Source: Actinomycetota bacterium (GTDB taxonomy: Bacteria; Actinomycetota; Acidimicrobiia; Acidimicrobiales; Iamiaceae). From it: a DNA stretch of 64,000 nt. The notes under the pieces are model-generated. The model saw only the letters and a program-made list of their open reading frames with translations, was not told the DNA's origin and did no database searches. The stretch covers positions 69,441 through 133,440 of the forward strand of contig JACPNX010000015.1 in assembly GCA_016185275.1 (NCBI GenBank), written 5' to 3'. Below are positions 1,960 through 24,029 of the stretch, piece after piece (position 1 is the first letter of the stretch; each line of letters begins with the position of its first letter). A program made the translations under genes and the position numbers.

Positions 1960-2329
1960 GCGGGCTCCTCGGTGTCAGGTGCCTTCGCGGGCGAACAGGC
2001 GCGGACCCTCGCCTGTTCGACGCGAGGCACCCGAGTTCCTTCCCGCCTACCCTCGCGGGCGCCGTCTCTCCGGGCCCGCCGGTGGTGCGCACCATGCGCA
2101 GCGCAGTGCCCTCCGGGTCCGCGAGCACGTGGGCGCCCGCGCCGTCCTCCTCGACGCTACGGGCTGCTCCGGGGCGCCTTCGGTTTGGCTTGCCCGCCGG
2201 CGCGAACAGCCGACGGGTGAAGTGACGAGCCCGCGTTGTCCCGCCTACCGACCAGTAGGTAGGGTGACTTCCAGAGCCGTGCCGGCGCCCCGGGACGCCA
2301 CCCCCCACGCACCCGGAGAAGAGGGAACC

Positions 2330-3403
2330 GTGCCTCGAGCCAGAGCCATCGAACGCTCGCCCGACGAGAAGATCAACTGGAAGACGTCGGCGCCGTTCAT
2401 CGCGGTGCACTTCCTGCCCCTGCTCGCCTTCGTGACCGGCGTGACCGTCAAGGCAGTGATCCTCGCGGTCGTGCTGTACCTGGGGCGGATGTGGTTCATC
2501 ACCGCCGGCTACCACCGGTACTTCGCACACCGGTCGTACAAGACCAGCCGCTGGTTCCAGTTCGTGCTCGCCTTCGGCGGCGGCACCGCGGCGCAGAAGG
2601 GGGCCCTGTGGTGGGCCTCCCATCACCGCGACCACCACCGCTACAGCGACACCGAGCGCGACCTGCACTCACCGCAGAAGGGCTTCTGGTGGAGCCACGT
2701 CGGCTGGATCCTCTGCGACAAGAACAACGGGTGGGACGAAGAGGACATCCGTGACTTCGCCAAGTACCCCGAGTTGCGGTTCCTCACCAAGCACGACTGG
2801 ATCCCGCCGTGGACGGTCGGCGTGGCCTCGTACCTCATCGCCGGGTGGCCCGGGCTGGTCGTGGGGTTCTTCGCCTCCACGGTCCTGCTGTGGCACGGGA
2901 CCTTCACCGTGAACTCGCTGGCCCACGTGCTCGGCCGCCGCCGCTATGCCACCACCGACACGAGCCGCAACTCCTGGCTCATCGCCTTGTGGACCGGCGG
3001 CGAGGGCTGGCACAACAACCACCACTACTACCAAGCGTCGGCGCGCAACGGCTTCTACTGGTGGGAGTACGACCCGACGTACTGGGGCCTGAAGGTCCTG
3101 TCGTGGTTCCGGGTCGTGCGTGATCTCAAGGTGCCGCCGGAGCGCGTCCTGCAGCGGGCCCGGGTGCGCGACGGATCGTTCGACGTCGGCATCTTCCGCG
3201 CCCACTGGGCCCGGGCCACCGCCGCCCTGGCCGACGCCAGCAACCGCCAGGTCGAGGGTGTGGCGGCCAGGCGCGAGGCGTTGGCGGACCAGATCTTCTC
3301 GACGCGCCAGGCGCTCGAGGAGCACGTGCAGCACACGCTGCAGAAGGCCGACGAGCTGGGCAAGCTGTCCCGGCGCAACAACCGCGAGCTGGCCGCGGAG
3401 TAA
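2330..3403 (+). CDS. Integral-membrane acyl-CoA (delta-9-type) fatty acid desaturase
   Basis: Three histidine boxes within ORF 1958..3403: HRYFAHRS, HHRDHHRYSD, HNNHHYY. Start moved to in-frame GTG 2330, preceded by GGAGAAGAGGGA. The 124 upstream codons are Arg/Pro-rich with no family signal. Confidence 0.85.
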   Translation: MPRARAIERSPDEKINWKTSAPFIAVHFLPLLAFVTGVTVKAVILAVVLYLGRMWFITAGYHRYFAHRSYKTSRWFQFVLAFGGGTAAQKGALWWASHHRDHHRYSDTERDLHSPQKGFWWSHVGWILCDKNNGWDEEDIRDFAKYPELRFLTKHDWIPPWTVGVASYLIAGWPGLVVGFFASTVLLWHGTFTVNSLAHVLGRRRYATTDTSRNSWLIALWTGGEGWHNNHHYYQASARNGFYWWEYDPTYWGLKVLSWFRVVRDLKVPPERVLQRARVRDGSFDVGIFRAHWARATAALADASNRQVEGVAARREALADQIFSTRQALEEHVQHTLQKADELGKLSRRNNRELAAE

Positions 3404-3432
3404 GAGGGCCGGACCCGACGGGCCCGAGCGCC

Positions 3433-3452
3433 GCCGGCCGAACCCGGCCGGC
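3433..3452. terminator. GC hairpin between convergent desaturase and carD genes (terminator-like, no U-tract)
   Basis: gccggccg-aacc-cggccggc: perfect 8-bp stem with a 4-nt loop, 30 nt after the desaturase stop and 11 nt from the carD stop. Confidence 0.3.
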
Positions 3453-3462
3453 TCGGAGCGGC

Positions 3463-3942
3463 CTACGACAAGCCGTCGTTGAGCTTGTCGAGGGCGTCGT
3501 CCTCGGAGACGTTCAAGGCGAAGGACAGCTCGGACACGAGGATGCTGCGCGCCCGCTCGAGCATGGACTTCTCGGCCGTCGACAGGCCCTTGCCCTTCTC
3601 CCGGAGCGCCAGGTTCCGCACCACCTCGGCGACCTGGTACACGTCGCCCGACTTCATCTTCTCCTGGTGGTTCTTGAAGCGCCGCGACCAGTTGGCCGGT
3701 TCACGAACGTCGCGCTTGGCGATGAGCCGGAACAGGTCCTCGACGTCGGACTTGCTGATCGGCGGACGCATGCCCACCTCTTCGGCTTTGTCGACCGGGA
3801 CCCGCAGCGTGAGCTCGCCGTGCACCATCTGGAGGACGAGGTACTCGCGCTCCTCACCGAAGGCCTCGATCTTCTCCTTCTTCTTGACAACCGCCGCGCC
3901 ATGGTGGGGGTACACGACGCGGTCACCGACCTTGAAGCTCAA
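3463..3942 (-). CDS. carD: CarD-family RNA-polymerase-binding transcriptional regulator
   Basis: FKVGDRVVYPHHGAAVV...REYLVLQM...LTLRVPVDKAEEVGMRPP...NWSRRFKNHQEKMKSGD is the typical CarD/TRCF-RID plus C-terminal helical domain. Start trimmed to in-frame TTG 3942 with GAGGAG just upstream, giving about 160 aa, the normal CarD size. Confidence 0.9.
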   Translation of the reverse strand: MSFKVGDRVVYPHHGAAVVKKKEKIEAFGEEREYLVLQMVHGELTLRVPVDKAEEVGMRPPISKSDVEDLFRLIAKRDVREPANWSRRFKNHQEKMKSGDVYQVAEVVRNLALREKGKGLSTAEKSMLERARSILVSELSFALNVSEDDALDKLNDGLS

Positions 3943-4079
3943 CGCAGGCTCCTCGCACAACCGCCCGGAAGTGAACGGTGCACCAGTCTGCCAGGTCACG
4001 CCGCAGGCTCGAACCTGGAAGCCTGGCGGGTGACACAAGACTCATTGCAGGCAGGCTGCGACTTCTGGCGGACGAGGCG

Positions 4080-4085
4080 TAGCAT
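4080..4085 (+). promoter_or_regulatory. Candidate -10 hexamer (TAGCAT) placed for a leaderless P450 transcript
   Basis: TAGCAT ends 6 nt before the ATG at 4092, and no Shine-Dalgarno lies in between. No convincing -35 at 17 nt spacing. Confidence 0.2.
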
Positions 4086-4091
4086 CCAGCC

Positions 4092-5396
<1,305 letters not shown>

Positions 5397-5537
5397 GGGA
5401 CGGCCGCCTCGGCTCCGACGCCCACCTCGTGGTGCGCCGGCGGGCCTGAGCGGGGCCGAGGCCGGATGAGCTCGGGCGAAGCCGGACGAGCTCGCGAACG
5501 CCACCGAGCTGCGCCGAGCAGGCCGTACCCTTTCAGC

Positions 5538-6188
5538 GTGCCAACCGGGTTCGCGCTGCCGCCGTATCCCGGCCGCGGCGTCGGGCTCTTCACCGACACG
5601 TATGGCCAGCCGTGGTGGGCCTACTTCGTGACCGGCCGCAGCCCGGCGTCCCGCGCACGCGCGCTCGTCGCCGACGAGCGCGGGCTGGTGGTCGCCTCCA
5701 CCGTCGAGGGCGCCGCCCACGATTCCCTTCGCCACTACCGCTGCGCCCGGTCGGCCGGCGATCGGCTGGTGGTCGGCAACGGCGACCACGTGGACGCCCT
5801 CGCGGACGCACTCCTCGCCGGCGAGGATCTCGCCACGGCCGTCGAGCGCGTCGACCCCGAGCCGGATCCACCGCTGCACACGGCCCGGCTGGCATTGGTG
5901 GTCGGGCTCGCCGCCCACCTCGTGGCCGTCCGCGAGGAAGGGGGAGCGGTGGTGCGGACGGTCGACGAGCTCGAGCTCCGCTCGGGCGAGGGCTGGATCG
6001 CTCACACCTACGCGGGGCCGCTCGACGAACCGATCACGGCCGCGCGGCCGGTGCCCGTCCACGGAGTCGGCGACGTGGTGGAGACCGCCTCGGAGCTCTG
6101 GGAGGCGCTCGACGTGCGCCTGCGGGTCGGGCTCGCGCTCGGTCGCGCCCCGGAACCCGTGCCCGTGGTGACCCTGGCCCGGTCGTGA
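5538..6188 (+). CDS. IMP cyclohydrolase-like protein (archaeal PurO family homologue)
   Basis: YPGRGVGL...WWAYFVTGRSPASRAR, VVGNGDHVDALADAL and DPPLHTARLAL line up by eye with PurO blocks (YLGRILAVGR..AYRVSSRSFPNR; VSNGSHTDTIADKV; LNTPRIAA). Start is uncertain: GTG 5538 chosen, the ORF track starts at 5466. Confidence 0.55.
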   Translation: MPTGFALPPYPGRGVGLFTDTYGQPWWAYFVTGRSPASRARALVADERGLVVASTVEGAAHDSLRHYRCARSAGDRLVVGNGDHVDALADALLAGEDLATAVERVDPEPDPPLHTARLALVVGLAAHLVAVREEGGAVVRTVDELELRSGEGWIAHTYAGPLDEPITAARPVPVHGVGDVVETASELWEALDVRLRVGLALGRAPEPVPVVTLARS

Positions 6189-6198
6189 ACCGCGGCGC

Positions 6199-6879
6199 TC
6201 AGCCGGCCCGGGCGGCAGGCTCGGGCGCACGCTGGACGAACACCGACGTGGCGATCCTGGCCGACAACGTCCGGTCCGACCCGTCGACGGCGATGACCAT
6301 GGGCCCGTCGAACGGATGCTTCTCCTTCACCTCGACGGCCACGCCGGGGCGCACACCGAGGGTGTCGAGGAACTCGATCACCTGAGGGTCGGTCGAGCCG
6401 GGCACGGCCACCACCGCGATGTCCCCGGGCTCCAGGTCGTAGAGGGGTGGCATCGCAGGGATCTCCGCGGTCTGCTGCGCCGGGATGGGAAAGCCGTGTG
6501 GGCAGGTGGCCGGCCGGTCGAGCGCCCGGTAGATCCGGTCCTCGACCTCTTGCGGCAGATCGTGCTCGAACGACCCCGCCAGCCGGTCCGCCTCGTTCCA
6601 GGCGTAGCCCAACATGTCCGACAGGAACCGCTCGACGATGCGGTGGCGCCGGATCGCCGCCACCGCGGCCACCCGGCCCGACTCGGTCAGCTCCACCCCG
6701 CGGTAGGGCGTGTAGGCGACGAGGGCTCGCTCGGCGAGCCGCTTCACGGTGGTGGTGGCCGTGCCGGGACTGATCCGAAGGGCGTCGGCAAGGTCGCCGG
6801 TGTGGGCGACGGAGCGGTCGACCGTCAACCGGTAGACGGCCTTGAGAGCTTCGCGCTCGGACTTGCTGACCTGGGCCAC
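6199..6879 (-). CDS. DtxR/IdeR/MntR-family metal-dependent transcriptional regulator with C-terminal SH3/FeoA-like domain
   Basis: N-terminal wHTH (TGDLADALRISPGTATTTVKRLAERALV), metal and dimerisation helix (RRHRIVERFLSDMLGY...EADRLAGSFEHDLP), CPHGFPIP, and a C-terminal beta domain. GTG start. Confidence 0.85.
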   Translation of the reverse strand: MAQVSKSEREALKAVYRLTVDRSVAHTGDLADALRISPGTATTTVKRLAERALVAYTPYRGVELTESGRVAAVAAIRRHRIVERFLSDMLGYAWNEADRLAGSFEHDLPQEVEDRIYRALDRPATCPHGFPIPAQQTAEIPAMPPLYDLEPGDIAVVAVPGSTDPQVIEFLDTLGVRPGVAVEVKEKHPFDGPMVIAVDGSDRTLSARIATSVFVQRAPEPAARAG

Positions 6880-7887: not shown

Positions 7888-8565
7888 TCATTCGTAGACG
7901 CCGCGGACCTGGTCGCGCACGATCGAGCCGCGGTCGAGCTCGACGACACGGCGGCGCATGCTGTCGACGATCCCGCGGTCGTGGGTGGCCATGACGACCG
8001 TGGTGCCCGTGCGGTTGATGCGGTCCAACAGCCGCATGATGCCGACCGACGTGGCGGGGTCGAGGTTGCCGGTGGGCTCGTCGGCGAGCAGGATCAGCGG
8101 GCGGTTGACGAAGGCGCGGGCGATCGACACCCGCTGCTGCTCGCCGCCCGACAGCTCGTCGGGGTAGTTCCGCTGCTTCTTGGCCAGGCCGACGAGCTCG
8201 AGGATGGCCGGCACCTGCGTCTTGATGACGTGCTTCGGCCGGCCGATGACCTCGAGCGCGAACGCGACGTTCTCGTAGATGGTCTTGTTCGGCAACAGCT
8301 TGTAGTCCTGGAAGACGCATCCGATGTTGCGCCGCAGGTACGGGATCTTCCAGCTCGACAACCCGTTGATGTCCTTGCCGGCCACGAAGATCTTGCCCGC
8401 CTGCGGCACCTCCTCACGGTTGAGGAGGCGGATCATCGTCGACTTGCCGGAACCGGACGGGCCGACGAGGAAGACGAACTCGCCCTTTTGGATCTCACAG
8501 CTCGCGTCCTTGAGCGCGACGACGTCGCCCTTGTACACCTTCGTGACGTTCTCGAGCGTGATCAT
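7888..8565 (-). CDS. ftsE: Cell-division ABC transporter ATP-binding protein FtsE
   Basis: [11 protein letters not shown]..., Walker [10 protein letters not shown], signature [14 protein letters not shown], Walker [14 protein letters not shown]. Start set at ATG 8565; 49 upstream codons rejected. Confidence 0.95.
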
Positions 8566-8711
8566 GCGCGTCGGCGGGAGGTCAGGCGGCGGGACAGGCT
8601 GAGCGCGCCGGCAGGCGGCTCGACAAGCGGGCAACGCTACCATCGGCGCTCCGGCGGCCTCGATCACGCACCGCTCGAGCGTTCGCCACGGTGCCGGCGG
8701 GTTGAAGCACA

Positions 8712-9773
8712 ATGGCTCTCGTGACGGGGGCGGGAACGACCGTAACCATGCCTCTCGGCGAGGTGCGGCGTGCGTTGCCCAAGCCCGTACGCACCCTCGA
8801 TCTCGCCACGTGGGTGCTGGAGAGCGTCTCCGCGATCGTGGTCATGGGCACCCTGGTCGAACTGGGCGGCCGACCGGGCGCCACTGGAGAGCCGACCTCC
8901 AAGGTGGTCGCGGCGGCGGCCGTCGTGATCCTGTCGCTGGCCATCTGGATGGGACGGCGCCGAACCGCACGCCTCGACGGCGAAGGCCTGCACCTGCGAG
9001 CCGGGTGGCGCCGCCCACGGATCTGCACAAGGTGGAACGAGATCGGTGGCTTTGCGGTCGCGCGGCGCCTTCCGCTCGGATGGGCAGAGGTCGACGTCAT
9101 CCTCGCCGACGGGACCAGCAGCCGCATCCCCGGCGTGATGCGGCTCGGCGAGGATCGACCGGAGGTGCGGCACGACGCCTACGGTCCACACCTGGTGGCC
9201 TGGGCGCGCACCCGCCAGCGGGAGGTGCAGGGCTTGCGGCCGGCGCACCCGGCACCGGCCGCCTCCGTGCGGCTCGCCGAGTGGGTGACGACGGCTCGGG
9301 GCGAGGGCCCCTACTACGCGATGACTGCCGTCTGGTACGGCACCTGGGCCTGGCTCGTCATGCCACGCGCCCGGGTCTGGGGTTGGACCGGCGCCGTCAT
9401 CGGAGTGACCATCGCCGCCGGGCTGTGGATCGCCCCTTACGCACTGGCCGCCCAGTGGTTCCGGATCGATCTGACAGACGACGGCCTGACGGTTCGGTCG
9501 TGGCGGCGCCGCCGCCTGCCATGGTCGGAGATCGAAGCCATCGGCACGACCTCGAAGGCCGTCGTCGGCATCCGGGCGCCGCTTCGGGTGGCGTTGCGCA
9601 CGACCTCGGGAGAGCTGGTCGTGCTTCCGTTCGGCTCGTCGCATCCCACGGTCCCGGGCGGCGGTTGGGGAGGACGCCTCGTCGACGCCGGTGTCCGCGC
9701 CGAGATCCTCCGCCCGTTCGCCGACGTGGCCCGGGCCCACGGGGTCGAGGTGGTCGTCGACCGATCACTGTGA
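8712..9773 (+). CDS. Membrane protein with two TM-pair plus bacterial PH-like modules
   Basis: Internal duplication: ...[35 protein letters not shown]... and ...[30 protein letters not shown]..., each preceded by hydrophobic helices. This resembles bPH (YdbT/bPH_6-type) domains. Start is ATG 8712 or ATG 8748. Confidence 0.6.
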
Positions 9774-17942: not shown

Positions 17943-18548
17943 TCACCTGGACTCGGTGCGGGCGGCCACGACGGCACGCACGTCGGCCGCCCCGGCGCGA
18001 TGGAGTGCGGCCGCGACCGCCGACAATGAACCGCCCGTGGTGACCACGTCGTCCACCACGAGGACCCGTCTGCCGGCCGCGACGGAACCGGAGATCGGCT
18101 CGACCCGCGGCCCGGCGCGGCGCTCGACTCCCGACCGCCCGGTCTGGGCGGGGCCGTCGAGCCGGCGGACCAGGCGAGCCACGGGGAGTCCGAGATCGGC
18201 GGCCACCGCCCGGGCCAGCAGCTCGGCCTGGTCGAACCCGCGACCACGCCGGCGCGCCCCGGTGGTCGGCGCCCACGTCACCACGTCGACGCGAGCGGTG
18301 TCGACCAGTTGGGCCATTCCGCCGGCCAGCCACCGCAACGAGGCCCGGGCGTTGCGGTACTTCAGCCGGGCCACCAGCTGGCGAGCGGCACCCTCGTAGG
18401 CGAGGAGGGCCCGGCAGTCCGACAGGCCGCGCGGCGCAGGCGCCGGTGCGGCGCGCCGGACGCGACCCGCGCACGTCGCGCACGGCGACGGGCCCGGTTG
18501 ATCGCACGCGCCGCAGCGGCTGGGGAGGAACACCCGCCCATCCTGCAC
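17943..18548 (-). CDS. ComF-family phosphoribosyltransferase-like protein
   Basis: N-terminal Cys pairs (CGACDQPGPSPCATC) and a PRTase loop VLVVDDVVTTGGSL. Start set to GTG 18548 after AGGGGGG; the 283-codon upstream extension is junk-like. Confidence 0.8.
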   Translation of the reverse strand: MQDGRVFLPSRCGACDQPGPSPCATCAGRVRRAAPAPAPRGLSDCRALLAYEGAARQLVARLKYRNARASLRWLAGGMAQLVDTARVDVVTWAPTTGARRRGRGFDQAELLARAVAADLGLPVARLVRRLDGPAQTGRSGVERRAGPRVEPISGSVAAGRRVLVVDDVVTTGGSLSAVAAALHRAGAADVRAVVAARTESR

Positions 18549-18601
18549 GGCCCCCCTGACAGCACACCGCGACGGGTTCCGTACCGGCCGGTGGCGGCGT
18601 C

Positions 18602-18713
18602 GCGGCCGGGACCGGCGCCGTCGCCAGCCGGCGCGGCCGGGGCATGCCCAACCCGGCGCGGCCGGGACCGGCGCCGTCGCCAGCCGGCGCGGGCGGGGCA
18701 TGCCCAACCCGGC
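18602..18713. repeat. 56-bp direct repeat x2 (55/56 identical), each carrying the 10-bp palindrome GGGCATGCCC, in a divergent promoter region
   Basis: gcggccgggaccggcgccgtcgccagccggcgcgg[c/g]cggggcatgcccaacccggc at 18602 and 18658. Palindromes are at 18640-18649 and 18696-18705. The repeat lies between the comF start (18548, minus) and the 18747 start (plus). Confidence 0.9.
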
Positions 18714-18746
18714 CGGCCCGCACCGTGCCGTCGGTAGCCTCTCCCG

Positions 18747-19421
18747 GTGGCCGCCACCGTCTCCCCCGGGTGCGGCGGCGCCGCGCCCGCGCGGGACGAA
18801 CCTCTGCCCTCGAACGCCCGGCGCCTCCGGCGCTGCGTGACCGGCCTCGTGCTGTGCGGGCTCGGTTTCTCGGCCCTCGTGCGCGCCGGCCTGGGCCTCG
18901 ATGCGTGGGACGTCTTCCATCAGGGCGTCGCGCGCCAGTTGGGTCTGCCCATCGGGACGGTCACCATCGGAACCGGGTTCGTCGTGCTGCTCGGCTGGAT
19001 CCCGTTGCGGGAACGGCCGGGCATCGGAACGTTGCTCAACGCGGTGGTCATCGGTTCGGTGATGAACCTGGTGATCCCGCGCCTGCCCGGGCCGACGGTG
19101 TGGCCGGTCGCCTGGACGTTCCTGCTCGGCGGCATCACGCTGGCCGCCGTCGGGTCGGGCCTCTACATCGGTGCCGGGCTGGGTCCCGGCCCGCGCGACG
19201 GGCTCATGACGGGCATCGCCCGGCGGGGCCACTCGGTCCGGGTGGTGCGCACCGCGATCGAGCTGAGCGCGCTGGCGGCGGGCTGGCTGCTCGGGGGCGA
19301 CGTCGGCATCGGGACGGTGGTCGCGGCCGTGACCATCGGTCCCGCGGTGCACCTGGCCCTCGACCGCCTGGCCCTGCCGCCCCGGGCGCGGGCGCACGCC
19401 GAGGCGATCGAAGGGACCTGA
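18747..19421 (+). CDS. YczE/YitT-like polytopic membrane protein
   Basis: LGLDAWDVFHQGVARQLGLPIGTVTIGTGFVVLL...GIGTLLNAVVIG...GLYIGAGLGPGPRDGLMTGIAR is typical of the YczE-like (DUF6198) family, recalled from memory. Confidence 0.6.
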   Translation: MAATVSPGCGGAAPARDEPLPSNARRLRRCVTGLVLCGLGFSALVRAGLGLDAWDVFHQGVARQLGLPIGTVTIGTGFVVLLGWIPLRERPGIGTLLNAVVIGSVMNLVIPRLPGPTVWPVAWTFLLGGITLAAVGSGLYIGAGLGPGPRDGLMTGIARRGHSVRVVRTAIELSALAAGWLLGGDVGIGTVVAAVTIGPAVHLALDRLALPPRARAHAEAIEGT

Positions 19422-19427
19422 CGGCGC

Positions 19428-20270
19428 TCAGGCCTCCGGCAGGAAGCCGTGCGCCGGGGCGTCGCCGGCGATGATGCGCTCGGCTCTCACCGCGATCATC
19501 GGGTTCCACTCGGGATGGGTGAGGATGTAGAAGCGGCGCTCGAGCACGGCGGCGAGCACCTGCTCGGCCACGTCCGCCGGGTCGAGCCCGGTGGCCAGCA
19601 GGCTGCGCAGCACGTCCCGGGCGGCGGCGCGGTCCTCGGTCGCGTCCTCGGGCCTCGGGCCGCCCGGCCGGTTGCGATCGGCATCACCGATGCGCGTGTT
19701 CACCCAACCCGGGCACAGCACCGAGACGCCCACGTTCGAGCCTTCGAGCGACAGCTCACCGTGGATGGTCTCCGACAGGGCCACCACGCCGAACTTCGAG
19801 ACGTTGTACGGGCCCATGAACGGCGAGGCGGTGAGGCCCGCCATCGACGCGGTGTTCACCACGTGGCCCTCGCCCTGGTCGCGCAGGAGCGGCAGGAACA
19901 CGTGGCAGCCGTAGATGACACCCCACAGGTTGACGTCGATGACCCAGCGCCAGTCGGCGAGGTCGCTGTCCCACACGGTGCCGCCGCCGCCGACGCCGGC
20001 GTTGTTGCACACGACGTGGACGGCGCCGAAGGCGTCGAGGGCGGCGTCGCGCAGGGCCTCAACATGCGCCAGCTCGCGGACGTCGGTGCGGACCCGGATG
20101 GCCTCGGCCCCCATCGAGCGGACGTCGTCCAGCGCGGTGTCGAGCGCGTCGTCCTCGATGTCGGCCATCACGACCTTGGCGCCGGCCGACGCGAAGCGCC
20201 GGGACATGGCCAAGCCGATGCCCGACGCGGCCCCGGTCACGACCGCGACCTTGCCTTCGATGGTGTCCAC
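19428..20270 (-). CDS. Short-chain dehydrogenase/reductase (SDR) family oxidoreductase
   Basis: TGAASGIGLA cofactor motif, NNAG, catalytic S...YNVSK. Confidence 0.9.
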   Translation of the reverse strand: MDTIEGKVAVVTGAASGIGLAMSRRFASAGAKVVMADIEDDALDTALDDVRSMGAEAIRVRTDVRELAHVEALRDAALDAFGAVHVVCNNAGVGGGGTVWDSDLADWRWVIDVNLWGVIYGCHVFLPLLRDQGEGHVVNTASMAGLTASPFMGPYNVSKFGVVALSETIHGELSLEGSNVGVSVLCPGWVNTRIGDADRNRPGGPRPEDATEDRAAARDVLRSLLATGLDPADVAEQVLAAVLERRFYILTHPEWNPMIAVRAERIIAGDAPAHGFLPEA

Positions 20271-20345: not shown

Positions 20346-21005
20346 TCACCCGCGTCGCGCCAGCCGCCACCGCAGGTCGGGCCACCACGACGCCAGCGCG
20401 TAGCCGGCCGAGCCGACCAGCGCGACGGCGCCGAAGAGCCGGTGCGCCGGACCCCACCCCGCTTCGAGGGGGCCCGACGCCAGGAGCGGTCGGTAGAGCA
20501 GCCCGCCGGCCGCGTAGGCCGCGAACACCGCCGGGGCCGCCGCCACTCCGCCCTGGCGCTCGGGCGTCAGGGCGGCGAGCACGACGCTCGACATCGAAGC
20601 GACGGCGATGAACGCCGCCAACTCGGTGGTGAGTGCGGCGCTCGGCAATGGCCCGATGAGGCGGGCGATCGATGCGACCGTGACGGCCCACGAGAGGGCA
20701 GCCCCCGGTAGCACGACGACGGCTCGGTAGAGGCGACGGCGGGCGAGGCTCACGGGCAGGGCGGAGGTCAACTCCCTGGCCGTGTCATCCTGGGAGAGCC
20801 CCGCGGCTACCGCGATCGACAGGGCGGCGATGCGAGCCGCTCGCACCGCCGTCGCCGGAGCGGTCGAGAGCGACATCGCGACCACGGTGGCGACCGGCAG
20901 GCCGGCGCCAACGATCGGAGCGGACCGCGGCACGACCGCCGCGGTGTAGCGAAGCAGCACACGAGTACACCGCACGCGCGCGCCGATCTGCTCGGTCAGG
21001 GACAC
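20346..21005 (-). CDS. Polytopic membrane protein, last gene of the ABC operon
   Basis: Only the C-terminal 219 codons of track ORF 20346..22613 look protein-like, with about 6 hydrophobic helices. GTG 21005 overlaps the upstream stop by 10 nt. Start is uncertain. Confidence 0.5.
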   Translation of the reverse strand: MSLTEQIGARVRCTRVLLRYTAAVVPRSAPIVGAGLPVATVVAMSLSTAPATAVRAARIAALSIAVAAGLSQDDTARELTSALPVSLARRRLYRAVVVLPGAALSWAVTVASIARLIGPLPSAALTTELAAFIAVASMSSVVLAALTPERQGGVAAAPAVFAAYAAGGLLYRPLLASGPLEAGWGPAHRLFGAVALVGSAGYALASWWPDLRWRLARRG

Positions 21006-22651
21006 GGTGGCGTCGGGCCGGTGATGCTCGGTGGTGCGGCTCGAGGCTCGCTCTGCCGGGGCAGAACGAGCCCGACGGCCCGGGCCAGGGCGTCCACGGA
21101 GAGGCGTCCCGCCCGCACCTGCGCCCAGCGTCCCCGGAGCACGGCCTTCACGCGTGACTCGGGAAGCCGGGCCAGGCGGGTGGCGGCCTGCGCCTGACCC
21201 GGCTCCACGTACACGCCCCCGGCCACGATCAACCAGACCGCGGTCGTGCCGGCCGAGGCGGTCGCACGGCGCGCCAGGTCGGCGAGAGCCTTCGCCGTGG
21301 CGGGATGGTCCTTCGCGGCCAGCCACAGGCCGATCACCGGGCGGCTGTCCGGGGCCGAGCACATCACGACAGGCGGCTGCATCCCTTCGGCGTCGCCTTC
21401 TGTGGTGAACAGTCGCTTCCCGGGCTGCGGTGCCGGTGGCAAGCCGGCGGCCCACATCCCCACGGCCGACCGGAAGTACAGATCGCGCTCGCCGGAACCG
21501 GTCGCCTTCACCATGCCGACCCTTGCCGAGTCCTCGTGGGCGTCGCGATAGAGCGCGTCGTCGACGGCGACCAGGACCCGTGGTGGATAGGCGTCGACGG
21601 GCAACCTTGGCGGTCGCTGGTAGATCGTGAACCGACCGGCGGGGCCAGTGGACGGAGCACCGGCAAGGACCTCGCTCGCTGCAGCGAGGTAGTCGCCCGA
21701 CCAGCCCACGTAGCCGGGGTAGAGGCAGGCGCGCACCTGCCCGCGGCTCGCACAGCGCTGCGTGCCGGGCGCCCCGAGCGCGAACCGTCTGGCGCGGGCG
21801 ATGTCGGCCTGGCTGGCCGGTCGAAGTTGCAGCCCGCCCGCGGCGACGGCACCTGCAAGCGACACGGCCGCGGCCACCTGCCGCGGGCGCCGCCGACGCA
21901 CCGCCAAGAGGCATCCCAGGGCCACGGCGATGCCGGCGAGCGCCGCGCCGTGCAGGACGGTCGGGCGGCGGGCCAGTTCGATGGCATCGGCCTTCGTCGA
22001 GAAGTCGACGAAGGGCTGCAGCCACCGGCTGCGGCTGGTCCCGTCGCCGTTGAGCTGGAACGTCGCCACAGCAGCCAGGACGACCAAGGCAACCGGGGCG
22101 ACCACCGACGGCAGCCAGCGGGCCAACGCCAGACCGGCAAGACCGGACAGCCACACGAGCACCAGGCCGACCGACAGCTCCGACCAGGCCGGCGCCCCGA
22201 CCGAACCTCGGAGTACGAGCACGACCGTGAAGGCGGCTGTGGCTGCCGCGCCCAACAGGGCGGGCACGGCGGTGACCGCGGTCCAGGCGGTCCACCGGGT
22301 CCGGTCGTCGTGCGGCATCGCCGCCAGGAGCTCCTCGGTGCCCAACCGGCGGTCCCGTAGCCCCAGAAGGTTCAGAGCGAACAGCGTGGCGACGGCGAGC
22401 GGCAGGAGCGACTTGGCGACGTAGACGGAGTCGCGCTGGAGGACCGGGCTGGCGCCTCCGGTCTCCCTCCAGAACAGGACGATGGACAACAGCAGCCCGG
22501 CCAGGACCAGCGGCTGGCGCAACAACCGCGGGGCCTCGGCGACGGCCAGACCTACGACGATCCGGCGCCGGCGGCGGCGCTGGCGCCGGGCCCCGTCGTC
22601 GACCTCGCGCCATCCCGTTGGCCGCTCGGCGGGCGCTTCCGCGACGGTCAC
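20996..22651 (-). CDS. ABC-2-like membrane protein with a large additional C-terminal domain
   Basis: About 6 N-terminal TM helices followed by about 280 aa of non-hydrophobic sequence. The start overlaps the ATPase stop by 4 nt. Confidence 0.65.
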   Translation of the reverse strand: MTVAEAPAERPTGWREVDDGARRQRRRRRRIVVGLAVAEAPRLLRQPLVLAGLLLSIVLFWRETGGASPVLQRDSVYVAKSLLPLAVATLFALNLLGLRDRRLGTEELLAAMPHDDRTRWTAWTAVTAVPALLGAAATAAFTVVLVLRGSVGAPAWSELSVGLVLVWLSGLAGLALARWLPSVVAPVALVVLAAVATFQLNGDGTSRSRWLQPFVDFSTKADAIELARRPTVLHGAALAGIAVALGCLLAVRRRRPRQVAAAVSLAGAVAAGGLQLRPASQADIARARRFALGAPGTQRCASRGQVRACLYPGYVGWSGDYLAAASEVLAGAPSTGPAGRFTIYQRPPRLPVDAYPPRVLVAVDDALYRDAHEDSARVGMVKATGSGERDLYFRSAVGMWAAGLPPAPQPGKRLFTTEGDAEGMQPPVVMCSAPDSRPVIGLWLAAKDHPATAKALADLARRATASAGTTAVWLIVAGGVYVEPGQAQAATRLARLPESRVKAVLRGRWAQVRAGRLSVDALARAVGLVLPRQSEPRAAPPSITGPTPPCP

Positions 22652-23541
22652 CCGTCGCCGTCCCTGGCGAGCAGGCTCAGGTAACCATCCTCGACGTTCG
22701 GTTCGGCCGGTTCCCGCCCGTCCGGCCGCGCTCCGAGATGCCGGCTCACGTCACCGGCCAGCGCCTGCGCGAAGTCGCTTCGATCGGTCGGCGGTCCGAG
22801 CCACACCCTGCCCTCGGCCACTGCCGCGAGCTCCGCGGCCGTGCCGGTGAACCGGATCCGGCCACGGTCGAGCACCATCACCTGGTCACACAGGTGGGCG
22901 ACGTCCTCGGTCTGGTGGGTGGACACCACCAACGTGGTCCGCCGACCGAGCTCCACGAGCAGACTCCGCAAGCGGAGCCGCTGCTCCGGGTCGAGGCCGG
23001 CGAACGGCTCGTCGAGGATCAGCAGCCGAGGCTCGGCGAGGAGCGCCTGCGCGATGGCCAAGCGCCGGCGCTGGCCGCCCGACAGCGCCCGGATCTTCTT
23101 ACCGGCCGACGCCTCGAGCCCGACGATTGGCAGTACTCGCTCGATGGCCTCCCGGCGATCGTGCGTCTTGGACATCCCGCGAAGAATGGAGATGTAGTCC
23201 AAGAAGGCGGTGACCGAGAAGTGCGAATAGAAGCCCGGCTCTTGAGGAACATATCCCAGCCGGCTTCGTACGGCTTCCAAACTGTGGCTCGGATCGAGCT
23301 CGAACAGCTCGAGCGATCCTCGGTCGGGCGGCATCACCGTGGCCATGATCCGCAGGAGCGTCGTCTTTCCGGCACCGTTCGGTCCCAGGAAGCCGTAGAC
23401 GCCGGCACCCAGTGACAGGTCCACACCGGCCAGGGCCACCGTGGCTCCGAACGACTTGTACAGGTCCCTGCCGACGACGCTTCGACCGTATGTCTCGGAT
23501 CGCAGGTTCGCAGCTGTCGCCGACGGATCCACGGGGATCAC
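22648..23541 (-). CDS. ABC transporter ATP-binding protein
   Basis: Walker A GPNGAGKTTLL, signature LSGGQRRRLAIAQAL, Walker B LLILDEPFAGLD, H-loop STHQ. The GTG start overlaps the upstream TGA (GTGA). Confidence 0.9.
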   Translation of the reverse strand: MIPVDPSATAANLRSETYGRSVVGRDLYKSFGATVALAGVDLSLGAGVYGFLGPNGAGKTTLLRIMATVMPPDRGSLELFELDPSHSLEAVRSRLGYVPQEPGFYSHFSVTAFLDYISILRGMSKTHDRREAIERVLPIVGLEASAGKKIRALSGGQRRRLAIAQALLAEPRLLILDEPFAGLDPEQRLRLRSLLVELGRRTTLVVSTHQTEDVAHLCDQVMVLDRGRIRFTGTAAELAAVAEGRVWLGPPTDRSDFAQALAGDVSRHLGARPDGREPAEPNVEDGYLSLLARDGDG

Positions 23542-23918
23542 GCTACAACGACCTCAATCCGACCGGGGTTGATGTACGTTCCGGTGCAGGACGTCTTGTA
23601 GGTGTCGCCATTGGTCCCCGAGATCGGGCCGTACGCCCATTCGGGGGTGCGGTTGGTGTTGCTCGAGGCTGGAAACGTGACACCCGAGTGCGAATGCCAC
23701 CATCCACTATGGCGGTGGATCGGTTTGCAGCTGACCGTGAGCGATGCCACAGTCATGTTGCAACTACCTGAGCCACCGATGTTGTAGGCGGTGTCGCTCA
23801 GCCGAGCGATCTTCGCCACCGTCGAGCAGCTGTGACCAGCGCTTGCAGGCTGGGTACTGAACGCAAGCGCCGCAGCGGCGAGCAACAAGAGAACACCGGA
23901 CTTGCGGATGACTGTCAC
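23538..23918 (-). CDS. Small secreted Cys/His-rich protein of unknown family, atypically low GC
   Basis: Signal peptide VTVIRKSGVLLLLAAAALAFSTQPASA, then about 99 aa with 4 Cys and the cluster HRHSGWWHSHSG. GTG 23918 is preceded by GAGGGGA. Alternative in-frame starts are ATG 23975 and TTG 23999. My hand-counted GC is about 57-68% per 60 nt, against more than 70% in neighbours. Confidence 0.6.
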   Translation of the reverse strand: MTVIRKSGVLLLLAAAALAFSTQPASAGHSCSTVAKIARLSDTAYNIGGSGSCNMTVASLTVSCKPIHRHSGWWHSHSGVTFPASSNTNRTPEWAYGPISGTNGDTYKTSCTGTYINPGRIEVVVA

Positions 23919-23975
23919 ATCATTCCCCTCTCGACGGCCCAAGCCGAGCGGCCACCACCCAGCGGCGAGGAGCAT

Positions 23976-23985
23976 CCCCCCCCCC
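23976..23985 (-). repeat. Homopolymeric G10 tract (C10 on the plus strand) directly upstream of or inside the 5' end of the small secreted protein gene
   Basis: The minus strand reads ATTGACTTTTCCGCTG-GGGGGGGGGG-ATGCTCCTC. A TTGACT hexamer lies at 23994-23999 and GATGCT at 23971-23976. Confidence 0.95.
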
Positions 23986-24029
23986 AGCGGAAAAGTCAAT
24001 AGGGAGTTGCACCGGCACCGCAGCCTTCG

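Follow-up and report, generated by a model that had tools for sequence, protein, structure and literature searches.

Two kinds of described loci come closest to the one analyzed here. Bacteriocins of the lactococcin 972 (Lcn972) type are Sec-secreted β-sandwiches whose genes are followed by two genes of the ATP-binding cassette (ABC) class, assumed to give immunity and transport (PMC11796350); Lcn972 itself is cysteine-free and binds lipid II (PMC8538875), and some pneumococcal scb loci are without a functional bacteriocin gene (PMC11796350). LanFEG/CprABC pumps, in turn, are encoded by one ATPase gene and two different membrane-subunit genes, which share a transcript and are translationally coupled; the two transmembrane (TM) domains are of similar size with six helices each, and the proposed action of these pumps is to remove the agent from the membrane (PMC5786555). 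In the stretch studied here, 64,000 nucleotides (nt) of contig JACPNX010000015.1 from an Iamiaceae (Actinomycetota) assembly, GCA_016185275.1 (hereafter the window, in which all coordinates without a locus name are counted), four minus-strand genes between 23918 and 20346 encode a small, apparently secreted protein, an ABC ATPase and two membrane proteins of 551 and 219 amino acids (aa). Judged from sequence comparisons, this block resembles the Lcn972/LanFEG arrangement and is a member of neither, and its three non-ATPase proteins are without described relatives in any library searched. The reading that we favour, at a probability of about 0.35, is that the small protein is a Sec-secreted, disulfide-locked and probably metal-binding effector, and that the other three genes encode a LanFEG-like pump for self-protection.

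The original prediction had described the four genes as a chain of overlaps, and the open reading frame (ORF) coordinates and junction sequences verified every one of them. The small gene (23538-23918, minus strand) starts with GTG and encodes a 126-aa precursor (HYX34_05800); it shares a GTGA at 23538-23541 with the ATPase gene (22648-23541, minus strand, 297 aa), which shares another GTGA at 22648-22651 with the gene of the 551-aa membrane protein (20996-22651, minus strand, HYX34_05790), and this one overlaps the gene of the 219-aa membrane protein (20346-21005, minus strand) by the 10 nt GTGTCCCTGA at 20996-21005. A Shine-Dalgarno-like GAGAGGGG (23925..23932, minus strand) can be read from the sequence 6 nt 5' of the small-gene GTG, and the 153-aa TTG-start ORF that extends to 23999 is merely the maximal ORF around this gene. 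The 4-nt and 10-nt overlaps among the ABC genes are also present in relatives, whereas only the window locus has an overlap at the junction of the small gene with the ATPase gene, where relatives have gaps of 4-74 nt.

The signal-peptide-like N-terminus, four cysteines and histidine cluster that had been noticed in the small protein are all present and are conserved in its homologues. By hydropathy, the first 27 aa (MTVIRKSGVLLLLAAAALAFSTQPASA; 23838..23918, minus strand) make up a Sec-type signal peptide with a basic n-region, an LLLLAAAALAF core and a predicted ASA/GH cleavage site. Both the n/h/c layout and the PASA/[GS]HSC junction are kept in homologues, the N-terminus has neither a twin-arginine motif nor a lipobox, and Sec export is the route that we infer. 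The mature protein of 99 aa (23538..23837 with its stop codon, minus strand) contains four conserved cysteines, C4, C26, C37 and C84 in mature numbering, the last three invariant in the family alignments and C4 nearly so; two disulfides probably lock the modelled fold. The histidine cluster HRHSGWWHSH (23688..23717, minus strand) spans mature residues 41-50. Alignments A3 and A7 show no variation at H41, H43 and H50 and very little at W47 and H48, which gives a family motif C-x-P-[VI]-H-[RK]-H-x3-W-H-x-H. A second conserved element, the loop GTNGDTYK (23595..23618, minus strand), precedes the last cysteine in the family motif G-T-N-G-D-x-Y-K-x-x-C. The window copy retains all invariant positions, that is, the four cysteines, the four histidines, G74, T75, D78, Y80 and K81.

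As far as sequence searches can tell, this is a very rare orphan family. In agreement with the earlier failure to recognise a family, the small protein matched nothing in Pfam, NCBIfam or PADLOC (which returned only generic ATPase matches at the locus). A word-indexed search of 5.8 billion proteins returned just two relatives, with 64% and 62% identity, and an exhaustive profile search of 1.84 billion cluster representatives gave 22 matches at E <= 1e-3. About 16 of these 22 are true family members, small (100-185 aa) and single-domain; the others are multi-repeat proteins, and the two that were inspected (P0010 and P0017) carry Kazal-like units that have merely the short G-[TS]-D-G-x-T-Y-x-x-x-C motif in common with the family. 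A profile search against PDB sequences likewise found the Kazal motif alone, at E = 0.2. The local G-[TS]-[DN]-G-D-T-Y-x-x-x-C does resemble the Kazal C-G-[ST]-D-G-x-T-Y-x-N-x-C, but the six-cysteine pattern is absent and the predicted β-sandwich differs from the Kazal α/β fold. Homology to Kazal inhibitors was rejected, given a similarity limited to a motif of ~30 residues (E = 0.2 against PSTI), an unmatched Pfam Kazal profile and an incompatible fold.

An AlphaFold2 model built from a 20-sequence alignment depicts the small protein as an all-β, immunoglobulin (Ig)-like sandwich, with a mean predicted local distance difference test score (pLDDT) of 94.7 and a predicted template-modelling score (pTM) of 0.83. 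Secondary structure assigned to the model by DSSP places residues 41-43 and 46-49 on adjacent strands with a two-residue turn between them; H41 and H43 lie at the end of one strand and H48 and H50 on the next. The four histidines probably point to the same side of the hairpin, I40 and W47 would be turned toward the core, and the HxH-turn-(W)HxH hairpin is most likely a site for a divalent metal. A Foldseek search of the PDB with the model gave no match at E <= 1e-3; the best matches are generic Ig-like sandwiches (for example ester-bond adhesin repeats, CsgC and ASF1) with TM-scores of 0.4-0.64, and a viral structure library contained no specific match. We also considered a zinc hydrolase of the M23/LAS or another type and rejected it, with no profile matches and only generic Ig-like sandwiches among the best 50 Foldseek matches.

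Of the three genes downstream, the first encodes the ABC ATPase that had been recognised earlier, and it matches PF00005 at E = 1.7e-27. Its best NCBIfam models are GldA (173.5 bits, cut-off 402.6), DrrA (172.3 bits, cut-off 312.45) and NodI, all below their cut-offs, and its alignment with relatives reveals a conserved C-terminal extension ending in EDGYLxLL. The 551-aa protein had been described as an ABC-2-like TM bundle with an extra domain, and this division is borne out by hydropathy (6-7 TM segments, then ~276 residues), whereas the ABC-2 kinship is not: the ABC2_membrane models of Pfam match none of five members of this family at E <= 10, nor the 219-aa protein at E <= 1. The membrane part (21827..22651, minus strand) has an Arg-rich N-terminus, predicted to be cytoplasmic, and six clear TM segments between residues 43 and 251 according to hydropathy and alignment A5, followed after RRRRPR by a weaker seventh hydrophobic stretch (~258-275, judged by eye); a loose GTxExLxxxP motif, which follows one of the early TM segments and was also noticed by eye, is a lead only. 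The C-terminal domain (20996..21826, minus strand) comprises ~276 non-hydrophobic residues, modelled as an orphan α/β fold, with C300, C309, C431 and C550 invariant in alignment A5; the charge distribution and the cysteines argue that it faces outward, into the extracytoplasmic space. The AlphaFold2 model of this domain, from a four-sequence alignment, is of middling quality, with a pLDDT of 66.7 and a pTM of 0.68, and a Foldseek comparison of it with the PDB found no significant match, the best being the ColH peptidase domain (E = 0.043, TM-score 0.32). A gluzincin peptidase was rejected for this domain, since the collagenase/M1 matches are weak (E >= 0.043, TM-score <= 0.35), no HEXXH is present and the model has a pLDDT of 66.7. 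The 219-aa protein (20346..21005, minus strand), which had been called polytopic, indeed has ~5-6 TM segments by hydropathy; it is conserved in six other loci (L002, L004, L005, L006, L045 and L047) and is presumably the second membrane subunit. Paralogy between it and the TM part of the 551-aa protein was considered and set aside, their similarity not being detectable, and neither protein has a match in Pfam, NCBIfam, PADLOC or the PDB. From these sequence features we propose that genes 2-4 encode a single ABC pump, formed by one DrrA/GldA-like ATPase, presumably as a dimer, and two unlike membrane subunits.

At six or more distinct loci the small gene adjoins ABC genes, with identities between the small proteins down to 38-40%, and the original suggestion that these genes belong together as a unit is thereby strengthened. 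Complete or nearly complete blocks are found in the metagenomic loci L002 and L003, from two JGI samples (small gene, ATPase, 525-aa and 215-aa proteins and a fifth gene of 171 aa), in L047 (P0009, 38-40% identical, then ATPase, 514-aa and 227-aa proteins) and in L045 (ATPase, 504-aa and ~215-aa proteins and a fifth gene, preceded by a small gene without its signal-peptide part). An ATPase gene lies 8 nt behind the small gene in L033, and another lies 4 nt behind that of P0013, 38% identical by tblastn, in L049. Two separate contigs of one sample, L001 and L004, hold the closest homologue of the small protein and the closest pump genes, respectively. Identities to the window for the small, ATPase, 551-aa and 219-aa proteins are 64%, 71%, 53% and 51% in L001/L004, 62%, 47%, 35% and 34% in L002, and 38-40%, 42%, ~27% and ~27% in L047; for this last locus, hhalign relates the larger membrane protein to the 551-aa family with a probability of 98.8 (E = 4.8e-17) and the smaller one to the 219-aa family with a probability of 73 (E = 3e-5). 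All four products thus diverge in parallel, which suggests a long co-inheritance, and the recurrence of the block even where the small proteins are only 38-40% identical suggests that its parts are inherited together and constitute a functional unit. Patterns from the 551-aa alignment, when used to scan GTDB genomes and JGI metagenomes, found nothing.

The composition of the block and its surroundings suggest an island-like behaviour. The small gene had been singled out as foreign, and codon statistics, for which 27 long genes of the window with high GC3 served as the reference (GC3 being GC content at third codon positions, GC1 that at first positions), agree: its GC is 0.609 against 0.72 in the reference genes, and its GC3 is 0.74 against 0.937 +/- 0.023 per gene. 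Compared with 126-codon windows of the reference (0.945 +/- 0.036), this GC3 has z = -5.7 and is equalled or undercut in just 0.2% of them, and an index similar to the codon adaptation index (CAI-like) is 0.395, the lowest in the window, against a reference of 0.761 +/- 0.058 with a minimum of 0.641. About half of the GC deficit is carried by first codon positions (GC1 0.49 against 0.72), a family-wide amino-acid effect, since all homologues of the small protein have a GC1 of 0.47-0.58 and a high share of Ser, Thr, Asn and Lys. The anomaly had been pinned to the first gene, where it is indeed strongest, but the three pump genes, with GC3 values of 0.83, 0.87 and 0.89 and CAI-like values of 0.535, 0.581 and 0.603 in operon order, also fall below every reference gene. 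GC3 climbs along the operon from 0.74 through 0.83 and 0.87 to 0.89 (0.68-0.82 in the first 120 codons of the ATPase gene); the anomaly spans the whole block as a gradient, with no step at the small gene, and it is the whole four-gene block that looks foreign. Flanking genes had been put above 70% GC, a figure that fails for ahcY at 68%, yet the GC3 of this gene is 0.97.

The four-gene cassette was probably acquired horizontally. Its flanks are different in every host, and in L001 the closest small-gene homologue lies between a phage-type integrase upstream and the start of an IS110-like transposase (VEVIHPRCAGVDVSKRDAKACV...) downstream (2135-3286 and 5872-6006). Around the window locus, att-like flanking repeats occur only at chance level, tRNA genes are far off and no integration scar was found, and a plasmid collection held no homologue of the small protein or of the 551-aa protein. 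The small gene is damaged, or flanked by a lesion, next to an intact pump at three loci: the window, where the C-terminal strand is missing; L001, with its insertion sequence directly downstream; and L045, whose small gene (5784-6290) matches P0008 from residue 17 on and has, where the signal-peptide part should be, the 3' end of an ORF of 923 aa (3220-5991), with the downstream pump genes intact.

How far do the described systems account for such a block? The analogy with Lcn972-type clusters, put forward in the original prediction, holds at the level of layout and not of family kinship. As in the Lcn972 and scbABC loci, a small Sec-type β-sandwich gene comes first in the operon and ABC genes follow, a generic arrangement that is insufficient for membership, and the distribution is patchy, with lesions of the structural gene in some loci, comparable to those of scb loci (PMC11796350). 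In contrast with Lcn972, which has none (PMC8538875), this family has four conserved cysteines, and it also has the histidine cluster; the 551-aa protein has the large soluble domain at its C-terminal end, a 219-aa membrane subunit is present in addition, and the genes follow another order. Lactococcin_972 (PF09683) matched neither the window protein at E <= 1 nor 20 family members at E <= 10, DUF1430/TIGR01654 matched neither the 551-aa protein nor its four relatives, and the Lcn972 structure 2LGN was not within the best 50 Foldseek matches of the small protein. Membership of the Lcn972 family was therefore rejected for want of a profile match and because of the cysteines and the different membrane protein. 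The resemblance to LanFEG/CprABC resides in one nucleotide-binding-domain gene and two distinct TM-domain genes that overlap (by 4 nt and 10 nt, conserved in relatives) and that lie, in the described systems, beside the gene of a secreted antimicrobial and, here, beside that of a predicted secreted protein. Several features differ: the two membrane subunits, of 551 and 219 aa, are far from equal in size (against ~25-28 kDa each), one of them bears what seems to be an outer domain of ~276 aa, neither matches an ABC-2 permease profile, and the partner is, according to the model, a folded 99-aa protein instead of a lanthipeptide. The ATPase scored 117.2 bits against the lantibiotic-protection model TIGR03740, whose cut-off is 309.75.

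Under the favoured reading, gene 1 would give rise to a Sec-exported, 99-aa Ig-like β-sandwich that displays the histidine hairpin beside the GTNGDxYK loop, and this protein would act as a secreted effector against the envelopes of competitors. The pump would recognise it through the outer domain of the 551-aa subunit and keep it off the producer's own membrane or wall. Dedicated export by the pump, one of the roles suggested originally, is unlikely, because the small protein bears its own Sec-type signal and would not need the pump to leave the cell; it is for this reason that we read the small protein as an effector and the pump as self-protection. We favour this combination because a secreted protein is linked to a pump of one ATPase and two subunits, as in LanFEG/CprABC and Lcn972-type loci, and the rarity of the block, its atypical codon usage, its variable flanks, its mobile-element neighbours and the lesions of the small gene beside an intact pump would fit a locus for antagonism. 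It is a rather doubtful further step to see here an undescribed class of Sec-secreted, disulfide-stabilised, metal-dependent protein antimicrobials of uncultured Actinobacteria, with a heteromeric ABC pump whose orphan outer domain is a toxin receptor, and with three new protein families. If the antimicrobial reading were true, the small protein would add a structurally new class to the protein bacteriocins, found in an actinobacterial lineage that has been little sampled, and the pump would be a new type of ABC immunity pump, which would bear on antimicrobial discovery and on how pumps recognise folded extracellular proteins.

Several observations weigh against an effector with its own immunity pump. 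No similarity to known bacteriocins, toxins or immunity proteins appeared in the profile, PDB, Foldseek or PADLOC searches, and the four-histidine patch points to metal chemistry and not to known bacteriocin mechanisms. Moreover, the small gene can occur alone. In GTDB genomes, which were scanned with a hand-made degenerate DNA pattern (the family alignment A3 being too divergent), the family was found only in Streptosporangiaceae, the genome-borne members belonging to Nonomuraea species and Thermoactinospora rubra (four GTDB species representatives, plus N. sediminis from an NCBI assembly). In all five genomes the small gene is solitary, with no pump homologue within loci of 8-16 kb, and the metagenomic contig L048 likewise has a solitary small gene with no ABC module nearby. 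The block recurs in metagenomic loci but not in Nonomuraea or Thermoactinospora, and the solitary copies imply that the small protein is not obligatorily toxic to its producer or is protected against in another way there. Two further contigs with pump genes, L005 and L006, start inside the ATPase gene, short of the position where a small gene could lie. Finally, the window copy is shorter at its C-terminus than all other full-length members and may be impaired. The four-histidine patch and the solitary homologues keep two rival explanations alive.

The first of these, unlikely in our estimate, is extracytoplasmic metal handling, in which the small protein would bind metal as a chaperone, a buffer or a metallophore-like ligand, and the pump would export or handle the metal or the metal-loaded ligand under stress. 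CopC, PCuAC and CusF are ~100-aa secreted all-β metallochaperones in which histidines on neighbouring strands bind metal. The small protein is a β-sandwich of this size class, with three invariant histidines and a nearly invariant fourth that the model places as HxH/HxH on adjacent hairpin strands. The original prediction had named an exported metal-binding protein as its alternative, and this hairpin lends it support. A binding protein would also easily explain the stand-alone occurrence, and histidines turn up around the family: the fifth gene of the L002 block (8379-8894, 171 aa), which has a counterpart in L045 (9345-9815, 34-37% identity) and is absent from the window, ends in a His-rich tail, DGHHHGQDHDAEH, and the solitary N. 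sediminis and T. rubra copies lie beside a regulator of the helix-turn-helix (HTH) type whose outer domain has HH pairs. Against metal handling, the motif here is HRHxxxWHxH, disulfides are predicted, and the linkage is to an exporter-type ABC pump rather than to cop, sco or cus genes; CopC, PCuAC and CusF gave no sequence match in Pfam or the PDB and are absent from the best 50 Foldseek matches. No P-type ATPase, CsoR/ArsR, CopZ or ZnuABC-type importer was seen near any locus, nor a metal riboswitch or other Rfam element in the leader, and such extreme rarity and island-like behaviour would be unusual for homeostasis genes. DrrA/GldA-like ATPases with polytopic partners are exporters that are not known to transport metal ions. 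Should the metal-binding reading be true, HxH-turn-HxH on an Ig-like scaffold would be a new type of extracytoplasmic metal site.

A similarly unlikely alternative is that the small protein binds the outer domain of the 551-aa protein as an accessory subunit, a regulator or a sensed signal, while the pump moves an unrelated envelope or secondary-metabolite substrate. The small gene and the pump genes are tightly linked, have long been so and diverge in parallel, as would be expected of such a ligand, and the large orphan domain, presumably exposed and with conserved cysteines capable of disulfides, would offer a docking site. The neighbours of the small gene at several loci count in favour of this reading as well: upstream of the block in L002 (2606-4666) and L003 lie an ECF (extracytoplasmic-function) sigma factor, a putative anti-sigma factor of 241 aa and a secreted protein of 173 aa whose match to Inhibitor_I36 is faint; the L047 block is followed (4387-5858) by genes, seen in none of the other loci, for a protein of 396 aa that Pfam links only faintly to the GNAT type (Acetyltransf_3) and for a 94-aa acidic protein; and the solitary genes of N. 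sediminis and T. rubra adjoin a divergently transcribed gene for a conserved membrane-bound protein (63% identity between the two; L008 7112-7864 and L009 7104-7844) with an N-terminal HTH, one TM segment and an outer domain containing Cys and His, which may be a dedicated sensor or regulator. However, the block is not accompanied by conserved biosynthetic genes that relate to a substrate, the solitary homologues show that the small protein works without the pump, and we found no precedent for an ABC pump of this sort with an Ig-like subunit secreted through Sec.

The shortened C-terminus of the window protein brings in a last explanation. The protein stops seven residues early (...GRIEVVVA), without the C-terminal strand E-S-x-x-[VI]-[TN]-L that is present in all other full-length members, and only in the window is the stop codon fused to the start of the ATPase gene. 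A weak DNA alignment at 23538-23575 hints at a 1-nt deletion relative to L001, and the shortening may reflect a true deletion, a variant that still functions or a fault of the assembly. The N-terminal extension of the ATPase was examined as a candidate frameshifted remnant of the lost ESxxVTL end, for which the DNA alignment is weak. Together with the lowest CAI-like value of the window and the lesions at other loci, this would be compatible with a decaying remnant, a small ORF impaired or misassembled at its 3' end in a metagenome-assembled genome, in which only the ABC genes function. We consider this improbable here, given an ORF that is intact through all invariant positions, a good ribosome-binding site and start codon, a shortened protein that still folds in AlphaFold2 (pLDDT 93 in its last 10 residues) and an ATPase N-terminal extension that is of similar length in the closest relative, L004, with no more than a short IPV stretch in common, so that the stop/start overlap is not obviously a frameshift artefact. 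Whether effector or metal-binding protein, the small protein and the subunits of ~520-550 aa and ~220 aa form families that lack annotation in Pfam and NCBIfam and that can be defined from the present alignments.

The leader that separates ahcY from the small gene is 111 nt long and contains a G10 homopolymer (23976..23985, minus strand), 58 nt 5' of the small-gene start codon. No other run of at least seven identical bases occurs in the 64-kb window, and the homopolymer could be a slippage-prone (phase-variable) tract or a site sensitive to assembly. Promoter and terminator scans, an Rfam scan and folding of the leader found nothing. The upstream flank (24030 upward) is the gene that, from its translation by eye, we take to be ahcY, for S-adenosylhomocysteine hydrolase, and on the other side, at 19428-20270, there is presumably a short-chain dehydrogenase-like gene, named in the same way. 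Further along, between an ORF at ~17943-19397 and another at 18747-19421, the stretch 18300-18900 has a very high GC content (0.77-0.83) and long overlapping ORFs on both strands, which make its gene calls ambiguous.

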